A stretch of DNA of 64,000 nucleotides from Escherichia coli (GCF_044324875.1 NZ_CP172185.1), one strand, 5' to 3'. Shown: positions 16,422-19,288, numbered from the stretch's first letter. Made by a program: numbers and translations. The notes: generated by a model from the letters alone, not told the origin.

Positions 16422-16622
16422 AGTTCCCGTCTTTTATCATTCAGTTACCAACCTGAATATCTGAAACAATGCCAGACATCGGTTACAAACTGGCATTGTT
16501 TTTATCATTCAATTTATAAACTACAATATTACGTATTATTTTTACATTTATGTCATTGCAAATATCAGACAAACAAGCATTATAACTCAATAAGTATATT
16601 TTTCGTGATTACAGACGACATC

Positions 16623-16760
16623 TGCAAATGCAAAATGGCATCTGAATCGATCGCAGTTTGGCATTCGAATCGATCATGATTTGGCATCCATCTCCGATCA
16701 CAGTTTGGCATCACAATCGATCACGATTTGGCATGCTTCCGATCATTGATTGGCATCCTG
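16623..16760 (+). repeat. Left-end array of five ~26-bp direct repeats (cgatcaNNNtttggcat), putative IstA binding sites
   Basis: gatcgcagtttggcat, gatcatgatttggcat, gatcacagtttggcat, gatcacgatttggcat, gatcattgattggcat. Confidence 0.7.
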
Positions 16761-16830
16761 CCAGTCACTCCGGGAATTAACTCTTTTCACCACAGTCTCC
16801 ATTGCCGTGTTTAAACCAGTGGAGACGTCA

Positions 16831-18396
16831 ATGTCCAGAAAGAGAAAATCCAGGAGCACTATGGAAACCTGTTTTAAGATCCTTCAGCTCAAGTTCGACA
16901 AGAAGCTGACTAACCGTTGTATCGGACTGACGTTACACATCAGCGCCTCAACCGTTTTTGAGGTTCTTGCCCGCTTCAAAGCCTCTTCTCTGTCATGGCC
17001 ATTACCTGCTGATATATCCCATGACACGCTGGAGAAACTCATTTTTCCGCCCAAAGACACCTTTGCATCAGAGCTTGTAATGCCTGACATGTTGTACTTC
17101 GATACGGAAATGAGAAAACCAGGTGTGACGCGGCAACTGTTGTGGATGGAATACAAGGCACAGGCGGGTAACAAAGCGATGGGATACTCGCACTTCTGCC
17201 GTTGCTACCGGGAGTGGAAAAAAACGCGACGTCTCTCCATGCGCCAGGAGCATCGTGCCGGCGAAAAGCTTTTTATCGACTTCTGTGGTCCTACGGTTCC
17301 TGTTATTAATCCGGACACCGGTGAGATACGCCGCGTGGCAATCTTCGTGGCCGTAATGGGGGCGTCCAACTATACCTACGTTGAAGCGTGCGAAGGTCAG
17401 GACATGATGTCATGGTTAAATGCCCACAGCCGTTGCCTGACCTTCCTGGGCGGCGTACCGAAGCTGCTCATCCCCGATAACCTCAGAAGCGCAGTGAAAA
17501 AGGCCGATCGATATGAGCCTGTCATCAACGACAGTTATCAGGCACTGGCTGAGCACTATGGCACGGTTATCATCCCGGCCCGACCACGCAAACCTAAAGA
17601 TAAACCAAAAGCAGAAAACGGCGTCCTCATCGTTGAACGATGGCTTCTTGCCCGCATCCGTAATGAAACCTTCCACACGCTCAGGGCGCTGAATGCGCGC
17701 CTTAGGGAGTTACTGACAGACATGAATAACCGGCCAATGAAGGGGTACGGCAATCAAACCCGTGCAGAACGCTTCCGCATACTGGATGCGCCAGCACTCT
17801 CTCCGCTGCCTCTGGCACCTTATGAATACACGGAATACAAAGCTGTGAAGGTTGGCCCTGACTACCACGTTGAATATGCCCGTCACTGGTACTCCGTTCC
17901 ACACGAACTGGTCGGTCAGCGTCTGTCACTGAAGGCGGGGCAGTCGGTGGTACAGCTCTGGCACAAGGGGCAGTGTGTGGCGCAACATCCGCGCAGCACA
18001 CATGAATATAAACACACAACCAATCCGCTTCACATGCCAGAGCGCCACCGGCAGCACGGGACATGGACACCGGAACGCCTGATCGAGCAGGGAAAACGTA
18101 CGGGCCCGTCCACAGGCCGGGTGGTTGAATCCATGCTGAAGGCAAAACCCCATCCGGAACTGGCTTATCGTGCAGTTCTGGGGCTGCTGGCACTTCAGAA
18201 AAAATACGGCCCGGAACGGCTGGAAAAGGCCTGTTACGTTGCCCTGCACTATAACGCCCCTGACAGACGCTTTATCGACAATCTGCTGCGTCACCATCGG
18301 GAGAACCTGGAGCTTCCATTATCCCGCCAGGGCGAACAACATCCGGCATATGCTTCAGAGCATGAAAACCTGCGTGGTCCGGGCTACTACCACTGA
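16831..18396 (+). CDS. istA: IS21-family transposase IstA
   Basis: Large ORF preceding the IstB ATPase inside the repeat-flanked element; start taken at MSRKRKSRS (16831). Confidence 0.8.
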   Translation: MSRKRKSRSTMETCFKILQLKFDKKLTNRCIGLTLHISASTVFEVLARFKASSLSWPLPADISHDTLEKLIFPPKDTFASELVMPDMLYFDTEMRKPGVTRQLLWMEYKAQAGNKAMGYSHFCRCYREWKKTRRLSMRQEHRAGEKLFIDFCGPTVPVINPDTGEIRRVAIFVAVMGASNYTYVEACEGQDMMSWLNAHSRCLTFLGGVPKLLIPDNLRSAVKKADRYEPVINDSYQALAEHYGTVIIPARPRKPKDKPKAENGVLIVERWLLARIRNETFHTLRALNARLRELLTDMNNRPMKGYGNQTRAERFRILDAPALSPLPLAPYEYTEYKAVKVGPDYHVEYARHWYSVPHELVGQRLSLKAGQSVVQLWHKGQCVAQHPRSTHEYKHTTNPLHMPERHRQHGTWTPERLIEQGKRTGPSTGRVVESMLKAKPHPELAYRAVLGLLALQKKYGPERLEKACYVALHYNAPDRRFIDNLLRHHRENLELPLSRQGEQHPAYASEHENLRGPGYYH

Positions 18397-18412
18397 CAGA
18401 AGGAACAACAGT

Positions 18413-19168
18413 ATGAGTGATAACCTGTTAAACAAACTGACCCAACTGAAACTCCCGGCGATGGCCGGGAGCCTGATACGGCAGCGGGAAACGCCTCAGA
18501 CCTACGACGAACTGTCGTTCGAGGAAAGGCTGACGCTGCTGGTTGATGACGAGCTTCTGAGCAGGGAAAACAGCCGTGTGGCACGGTTGAGAAAAAATGC
18601 CGGCCTGAAATACCAGGCAACACCGGAAGGGCTGCGCTATCCGGCCTCAAGAGGTCTGCGGGCTGAACAGATGAGAGAACTGCTGAACGGCCACTACATA
18701 ACCCACAGGAAAAACCTGCTGATAACCGGTCCGACAGGATGTGGCAAGAGCTGGATAGCCAATGCGCTGGGCGAACAGGCATGTCGACAGAAACACAGCG
18801 TCCGGTACTGTAGAACCGGGCGATTACTGGAACAACTGGCTCAGGGACGTGTTGATGGCAGCTGGCTGAAATATCTGAAACAGTTGCAAAAAATACAGGT
18901 TCTAATCCTGGACGATCTGGGGCTGGAACAGTTAAGTAACGCCCAGTGTAATGACCTTCTGGAGCTCATAGAGGATCGTTACGGACAAAGCAGCACGATA
19001 GTGGTAAGCCAGTTCCCGGTAGATAAATGGCATGGTCTGATGGAGAACCCAACAACAGCAGATGCCATCCTGGACAGACTGGTACATAACTCACACCGAG
19101 TGGTCCTTCAGGGAGAGTCACTGAGGAAAAATCCCCCGGTAGTGGAAAGCAGCGAAAAAACGCGTTAA
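18413..19168 (+). CDS. istB: IS21-family helper ATPase IstB
   Basis: MSDNLLNKLTQLKLPAMA...; Walker A GPTGCGKSW and Walker B VLILDDLG; RBS aggaacaaca upstream. Confidence 0.85.
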   Translation: MSDNLLNKLTQLKLPAMAGSLIRQRETPQTYDELSFEERLTLLVDDELLSRENSRVARLRKNAGLKYQATPEGLRYPASRGLRAEQMRELLNGHYITHRKNLLITGPTGCGKSWIANALGEQACRQKHSVRYCRTGRLLEQLAQGRVDGSWLKYLKQLQKIQVLILDDLGLEQLSNAQCNDLLELIEDRYGQSSTIVVSQFPVDKWHGLMENPTTADAILDRLVHNSHRVVLQGESLRKNPPVVESSEKTR

Positions 19169-19288
19169 AAAGCGGTAGAAAAAGTTAAGTTCCCGGTTGA
19201 TCGAATGGATGCGAATCGCTGATCGGACTTCGATGCCAATCCGTGATCGAATAGAGCGGAATACGCAGCAAATCTGTGAGATGTGATT

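Follow-up and report, generated by a model that had tools for sequence, protein, structure and literature searches.

The window analysed here is a 64,000-nucleotide stretch of Escherichia coli DNA (NZ_CP172185.1). It contains an insertion sequence (IS) of the IS21 family between a DUF3987 P-loop gene and a tyrosine integrase gene, with istA and istB in its interior and short repeat units at both ends. The features are given below, with positions counted from the first letter of the window.

14875..16421, plus strand: left neighbour, the DUF3987 P-loop gene of the island, untouched by the IS
16624..16628, no strand: left copy of the target-site duplication GCAAA, which is single in the empty site
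16629..19267, plus strand: complete IS21-family insertion sequence, ISSso4-type isoform, 2,639 bp, 5'-TG...CA-3'
16629..16651, plus strand: left repeat L1, the terminal unit TGCAAAATGGCATCTGAATCGAT, with its register taken from the IS tip
16652..16674, plus strand: left repeat L2, by motif match
16675..16698, plus strand: left repeat L3, by motif match
16699..16721, plus strand: left repeat L4; the pair L4-L5 resembles the pair L2-L3
16722..16743, plus strand: left repeat L5, by motif match
16744..16766, plus strand: left repeat L6, TTGGCAT core intact, second block CAGTC
16770..16788, plus strand: inner box CCGGGAATTAACTCTTTTC, with an inverted partner at 19178-19196 just inside the right-end repeats
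16831..18396, plus strand: istA, DDE transposase, 521 aa, ATG at 16831 with the Shine-Dalgarno sequence GGAG
18413..19168, plus strand: istB, AAA+ helper ATPase, 251 aa, by profile matches and Walker motifs
19200..19221, minus strand: right repeat R3, core TTCGCAT with one mismatch, by motif match
19222..19245, minus strand: right repeat R2, core TTGGCAT, by motif match
19246..19267, minus strand: right repeat R1, the terminal unit, first block degenerate and GATC block kept
19268..19272, no strand: right copy of the target-site duplication GCAAA, which is single in the empty site
19289..20497, minus strand: right neighbour, intact tyrosine integrase with Arm-DNA-bind_3, Phage_int_M, and Phage_integrase domains

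The termini of the element were set by six other copies in unrelated contexts together with a precise empty site. The six fetched copies (L001-L006), anchored on internal sequence, were each 2,639 bp long with unrelated flanks and shared the start TGCAAAATGGCAT and the end GGAATACGCA; the imperfect terminal inverted repeats of the TG...CA form (TGCAAAATGG... / ...GGAATACGCA) are the same in seven copies. The initial annotation had placed an element at 16620-19270, and the element itself stands, with exact ends at 16629 and 19267 instead. The direct repeats that it suggested seeking at refined boundaries were found as the 5-bp GCAAA. Duplications of 5 bp occur in two of the six fetched copies (GTAAA and AAAAG) and of 6 bp in three (CAAAGG, AGCAAT, and GTAAAG), and one ISSso4 copy has a 7-bp duplication. 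The remaining fetched copy lacks a duplication and has pieces of two distinct phage genes on its two sides, a sign of rearrangement after insertion. No tandem copy of the element was found within the window.

Joining the flanks with a single GCAAA gave a 588-bp reconstruction that is 100% identical, ungapped, to a junction in many E. coli genomes, and at least 80% of it is covered in 171 genomes; E. coli SMS-3-5 is among those with the 100% identical empty DUF3987-integrase junction. This exact empty site between the same two genes bears out the earlier placement of the element between convergent integrase and P-loop genes. The distances estimated at that stage were also close, since 21 bp separate the right end of the IS (19267) from the stop codon of the integrase (19289-19291, minus strand; estimate ~20 bp) and the left end (16629) lies 207 bp past the DUF3987 stop (16421; estimate ~200 bp).

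The region was compared by megablast with 5,426 complete E. coli genomes, which gave near-identical copies in many settings, all matches starting and stopping at the same bases, and with a query across the left junction the element was found at this site in 0 of the 5,426, indicating that the insertion is strain-specific. With the site unoccupied in other genomes and 100% identical copies of the element elsewhere, the event is a recent one. The insertion is recent, precise, and neutral, and it lies in a genomic island, where 228 bp separate the convergent DUF3987 and integrase genes. No gene is broken by it; the DUF3987 gene is divided into two ORFs in the window by a 19-bp deletion. ARAGORN found no tRNA attachment site for the island in the window or at the SMS-3-5 locus. 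Considering that no other complete E. coli genome has the site occupied, the insertion is usable as a strain marker, while its value for annotation is small: the IS is a common one, and its arrival in this strain is neutral and disrupts no gene.

Both genes of the element are full length. IstA matched NCBIfam NF033546 (transpos_IS21) with 284.7 bits (cutoff 160), Pfam Mu-transpos_C_2 with 72 bits, and Pfam rve with 32.1 bits, slightly below the cutoff of 32.6. Its residues 85-383 align with IS5376 IstA, known from cryo-EM (PDB 8B4H, 8Q4D; E=7e-14), and D150, D216, and E262 coincide with the catalytic triad of that protein, while the N-terminal helix-turn-helix (HTH) region (residues 1-84) gave no sequence alignment with it. 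IstB matched NCBIfam NF038214 (IS21_help_AAA) with 257.8 bits (cutoff 200) and Pfam IstB_IS21 with 205.7 bits, and it contains a Walker A motif, GPTGCGKS, from residue 106 and a Walker B motif, LILDDLG, at residue 164. The assignment to the IS21 family made in the initial annotation is well founded, as both proteins pass curated family models and the element has TG...CA ends and a 5-bp duplication.

The S. sonnei plasmid copy L008, for which PGAP gives the ISSso4 label on both genes, is 96.3% nucleotide-identical to the window element over 2,639 bp. PGAP names the identical IstB an "IS21-like element ISSso4 family helper ATPase" and puts no ISSso4 label on the IstA of the window. The PGAP-labelled ISSso4 of S. 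sonnei and the window element alike have two genes, 2,638 and 2,639 bp, respectively, the same termini, and six left and three right units; they differ by ~3.7% nucleotide divergence and in the L6 core, which is TTGGAAT in ISSso4. Under the ISfinder convention, an isoform matches the reference element end to end at 95% nucleotide identity or more. The element is filed provisionally as an ISSso4-type isoform, after the PGAP label. Another name, ISEc12, was considered; ISEc12 in tssM of ST131 was published with the duplication ACTGC. It was not adopted, as no exact copy of this isoform with the right end next to ACTGC or GCAGT was found with both orientations searched. A 50-kb stretch of EC958, chosen by guess, contained no T6SS locus.

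Full-length copies occur in 225 of the 5,426 E. coli genomes, at up to 23 places per genome, and plasmids of Escherichia, Salmonella, and Klebsiella carry them too. In many E. coli genomes the IS survives only as relic fragments, which raises the question of whether the window copy is likewise a defective fossil unable to move. We consider this very unlikely: neither ORF is truncated and the catalytic DDE residues and Walker A/B motifs are present, IstA and IstB are each residue-identical on more than 900 public contigs, copies elsewhere match all 2,639 bp at 100% identity, and the element retains both ends and its target duplication. We infer that the element is still mobile.

The ends of the element are built from repeated units. 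The pattern GATCN5TTGGCAT occurs five times on the plus strand (16649-16756) and twice on the minus strand (19209-19248), one with a mismatch; these seven are all those found in the 64-kb window and all lie in the IS ends, against 1.9 expected, and none of 100 shuffles reached seven. The motifs of the left and right ends are in inverted orientation to each other. Five left TTGGCAT copies had been noted initially, and these are present together with a sixth, terminal unit with ATGGCAT (16635-16641), so that the left end has six units, the right end having three. The left TGGCAT starts are at 16636, 16659, 16682, 16706, 16729, and 16751, with spacings of 23, 23, 24, 23, and 22, and Tandem Repeats Finder reported a period of 23 and also one of 47. 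The units, spaced at 22-24 bp, each combine a conserved TTGGCAT block with a conserved CGATC block roughly a helical turn away. The second block of L6 is a proper GATC in a relative from Pectobacterium. The inverted inner box common to both ends (CCGGGAATTAAC...TTTTC) is conserved in ISSso4 and in the Pectobacterium relative. The ends of IS21-family elements contain IstA binding sites with 23-bp phasing, and the published repeats follow a bipartite CS1/CS2 pattern, whose blocks are read by HTH-1 and HTH-2 of IstA (PMC10122671); the units of the window agree with both the spacing and the bipartite pattern.

Host sequence had been named in the initial annotation as the origin of the repeats that would speak against its reading. 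Examples of such sequence abutting the IS would be iterons, a cluster of integrase arm sites, or an island attachment region. The array is near an integrase gene, arm-type sites are likewise short direct repeats, and solo array fragments are widespread in E. coli chromosomes. These points are outweighed by the empty site, where the array is lacking although the remaining sequence is 100% identical, and by the other full copies, in which the array is base-identical whatever the flank. The array motif also recurs inverted at the other end of the element, and the solo fragments that were examined are truncated relics, opening with the IS tip (TGCAAAATGG; L136, L137, and L140) or with a near-identical form of it (TGCAAATATGG; L139). 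A host origin has a negligible probability, and the array belongs to the IS. IS66-family elements beside relic arrays were considered as being recruited there by a TnpA akin to the IstA N-terminus, and this idea was dropped, the two adjacent TnpA proteins having no similarity to IstA residues 1-110. It had been prompted by a sub-threshold NF038385 match.

Unit numbers vary among relatives. The Pectobacterium plasmid relative, with coding DNA 81% identical, has six units at the same positions in an array that is ~91% identical, its substitutions clustering in the 4-5-nt spacer that precedes TTGGCAT. More distant elements with 23-bp phasing have other cores: a Klebsiella element has five left and three right units with the core TTTCGG, a distantly related element on an E. 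coli plasmid has five left units with TTCGCAT, and a Pseudomonas element of the ISPsy14 type has three left and three right units with TTGGACA. Among close variants, one (L132) has four left units and another (L133), a full-length element whose istA and istB are both intact and which is flanked by the 5-bp duplication AGGCT, has three. Five are present in a decayed copy. A 60-bp signature of the three-unit left end was present in 372 genomes. The two chromosomal three-unit loci examined represent one conserved truncated relic, so they do not demonstrate that the three-unit form is active. A genome scan with TTGGCATN{6,8}GATCN{4,6}TTGGCAT gave at least 120 loci, and among the matches listed nearly all were single chance matches in unrelated phyla.

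Published accounts give "usually at least two" repeats per end, and the left repeats were initially judged to be more than expected. With three to six left units among relatives, six is at the high end, as that judgement held, and is not anomalous, repeats with 23-bp phasing being a family trait (PMC10122671). [quoted passage not shown] The natural three- and four-unit variants mean that six units are not obviously required, and the polymorphic unit number shows that six is not obligatory.

The prototypes IS5376 and IS21 resemble the window element in having an IstA with DDE and beta-barrel domains, an AAA+ IstB, a CA terminus, and a 5-bp duplication (PMC10122671, PMC11208146), as well as direct repeats phased at 23 bp, each unit with a pair of conserved blocks (PMC10122671). 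They differ in having two repeats per end (L1/L2 and R1/R2), compared with six and three in the window; IS5376 IstA has 400 residues (PMC10122671) compared with 521 aa, and the repeat sequences are unrelated. Work in vitro showed that two complete repeats at each end are required by IS5376 IstA, whose tetramer synapses two supercoiled ends (PMC10122671). Target DNA is bent by decamers of IstB, which also activate IstA (PMC11208146). Tn7, with its TnsB sites, and phage Mu, with L1-L3 and R1-R3, resemble the window element in having unequal repeat numbers at the two ends, and all three have more transposase sites than the core catalytic tetramer uses. This likeness is one of architecture only, as the three belong to different families, have different numbers of proteins, and select their targets by different systems. 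The role of such extra transposase sites has been called an open question (PMC10122671).

In an extension of the IS5376 model to the window element, the two N-terminal HTH domains of IstA would bind the 23-bp-phased direct repeats at both ends, and an IstA tetramer would synapse the two outer units at either end and cleave at the terminal CA. IstB-ATP decamers would bend the target, after which they would bring in IstA and activate it to carry out strand transfer, leaving the 5-6-bp duplication. In such a scheme, L1-L2 would be the core sites and L3-L6 would be accessory IstA sites between the core end and the start of istA. The likeliest role of L3-L6 would be to raise the local occupancy of IstA at the left end, which could ease transpososome assembly, reduce the entry of outside transcription into istA, or both. 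Binding of IstA to L3-L6 is predicted from one basis, their similarity to L1, L2, and R2, and the binding geometry is extrapolated, since residues 1-84 gave no alignment with IS5376 IstA.

Alternatively, L3-L6 may have arisen by slippage or unequal recombination between 23-bp units and be selectively neutral, with only the outer two units mattering. Over 47 bp, L4-L5 matches L2-L3 at 83-84% identity, so the array arose at least in part by duplication of two units, an event that looks recent. Two complete repeats per end also suffice for IS5376 IstA in vitro (PMC10122671), and close relatives range from three to six units, including the full-length three-unit element with a target duplication. 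On the other hand, that three-unit form was found as a full element at one plasmid locus only, and the six-unit layout with intact cores is retained in ISSso4 (96%) and in the Pectobacterium element (82%), where the array is better conserved than the coding DNA. Distant relatives with other cores (TTTCGG in Klebsiella and TTCGCAT in E. coli) independently keep five left units against three right ones. Neutrality of L3-L6 is therefore possible, though somewhat unlikely, and the conservation data favour a function of the extra units. The TTGGCAT array is probably functional.

The region between the array and istA offers some weak hints of how expression might be controlled. The annotated ATG of istA at 16831 is followed in frame, 10 codons on, by a second ATG at 16861 (Shine-Dalgarno AGGAG), which is the RefSeq start and gives a protein of 511 aa; each start has its own Shine-Dalgarno sequence, and both are kept in the Pectobacterium relative. 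By analogy, these paired starts recall the two IstA isoforms reported for IS21 (PMC10122671). A predicted RNA fold of 16758-16875 pairs both Shine-Dalgarno sequences (-32.9 kcal/mol, z = -2.3), and such hiding of the istA Shine-Dalgarno sequences would be a modest pointer to protection against read-through activation. A promoter scan found no sigma-70-like promoter in the left end inside the IS, so that occlusion of a promoter by the array would be a role without an identified promoter; hand inspection of the junction gave no convincing -35/-10 pair.

A GATC (Dam) site is present in every unit except L6, and the 214 bp of both ends contain eight GATC, compared with 0.75 expected at the rate of the window, an excess that arises from the repeat sequence itself. 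Dam methylation regulates IS10 and IS50. No paper linking the IS21 family with Dam methylation was found in a searchable literature library. The left end also has four units beyond what the IstA tetramer needs. The array might act as a regulatory module, not as spare docking sites, in which the Dam state gates IstA binding and couples transposition to passage of the replication fork, as in IS10 and IS50; IstA bound at L3-L6 would block read-through into istA or titrate IstA. This proposal, drawn by analogy, is improbable at present; if it were true, the natural three-, four-, five-, and six-unit variants would be tuned alleles.

Taken as a whole, the locus is read with high confidence as an intact, recently inserted copy of a known IS21-family element, of which the TTGGCAT array is a part. 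The element is an already known IS type and, as such, an ordinary finding. Its wider interest is in the architecture, an IS21 subgroup with up to six left and three right phased, putative transposase-binding units. The natural variants with three to six units form a ready-made series for testing the role of accessory end repeats, a question raised in the structural literature on IS21, Tn7, and Mu.

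In E. coli SMS-3-5, which carries the same island junction without the IS, the DUF3987 P-loop gene is intact and 1,566 bp long. Its counterpart adjoining the element in the window has lost 19 bp by comparison, and because of this deletion it is split into two ORFs and is a pseudogene.

14875-16421, plus strand: DUF3987 P-loop gene, break at 15334/15335
14875-15339: first ORF of the broken gene
15336-16421: second ORF of the broken gene
12687-14510, minus strand: 607-aa island ORF, annotated as 'hypothetical protein' in SMS-3-5

A Pfam search of the 607-aa ORF gave no match. Downstream of the DUF3987 gene, a strong hairpin at 16468-16510 (AAACAATGCCAG ... 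CTGGCATTGTTT) is followed by TTTTAT and likely constitutes an intrinsic terminator; seen from the gene, the IS was inserted past this hairpin. An Rfam mir-1002 match at 16439-16526 was rejected as spurious since the hairpin accounts for it.

On the other side of the element, the integrase 5' flank (20498-20945) contains an Rfam RtT element at 20716-20852 (46.3 bits against a cutoff of 45). A segment of roughly 100 bp is also duplicated there in direct orientation, with copies at about 20648-20745 and 20838-20935. No tRNA gene was found anywhere in the window. Sequence similarity with the SMS-3-5 island ends at 20711, where the island borders clpA in SMS-3-5 but a DUF2726 gene and phoH in the window, so the same island seems to occupy different chromosomal contexts. 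The 3' part of phoH (minus strand) is overlapped by a strong match to the antisense sRNA family Ysr251 at 22224-22417 on the plus strand (191 bits, cutoff 100).

Some match to the IS was present in about 1,780 E. coli genomes and a full-length copy in only 225, and truncated left-end relics retaining 3-5 repeat units were far commoner than full copies in these genomes. Examples are as follows.

L140, 3001-3102: left-end relic in the O157:H7 ter island
L136/L137, 3201-3268: left-end relic
L139, 2945-3202: left-end relic

At two independent loci, an IS66-family element directly follows the final repeat unit of the relic. In many plasmids (matches H89-H95 and H140-H147), all that is present of the element is the terminal 33-34 bp of either its left or its right end, with 94-100% identity; these solo end stubs were presumably left by deletions.

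The istA gene has two in-frame starts, 16831 and 16861, each preceded by a Shine-Dalgarno sequence (16795-16860), and RNA folding predicted that both Shine-Dalgarno sequences pair with upstream IS sequence (z = -2.3). Comparison of IstA with the TnpA proteins adjoining the relics revealed no similarity. The IstA N-terminus (residues 6-70 in 511-aa numbering; 16831-17040) matched NCBIfam NF038385, 'IS66-like element accessory protein TnpA', below threshold (E=9e-15, 54.7 bits, cutoff 150), suggesting that IS21- and IS66-family proteins have an HTH module in common.
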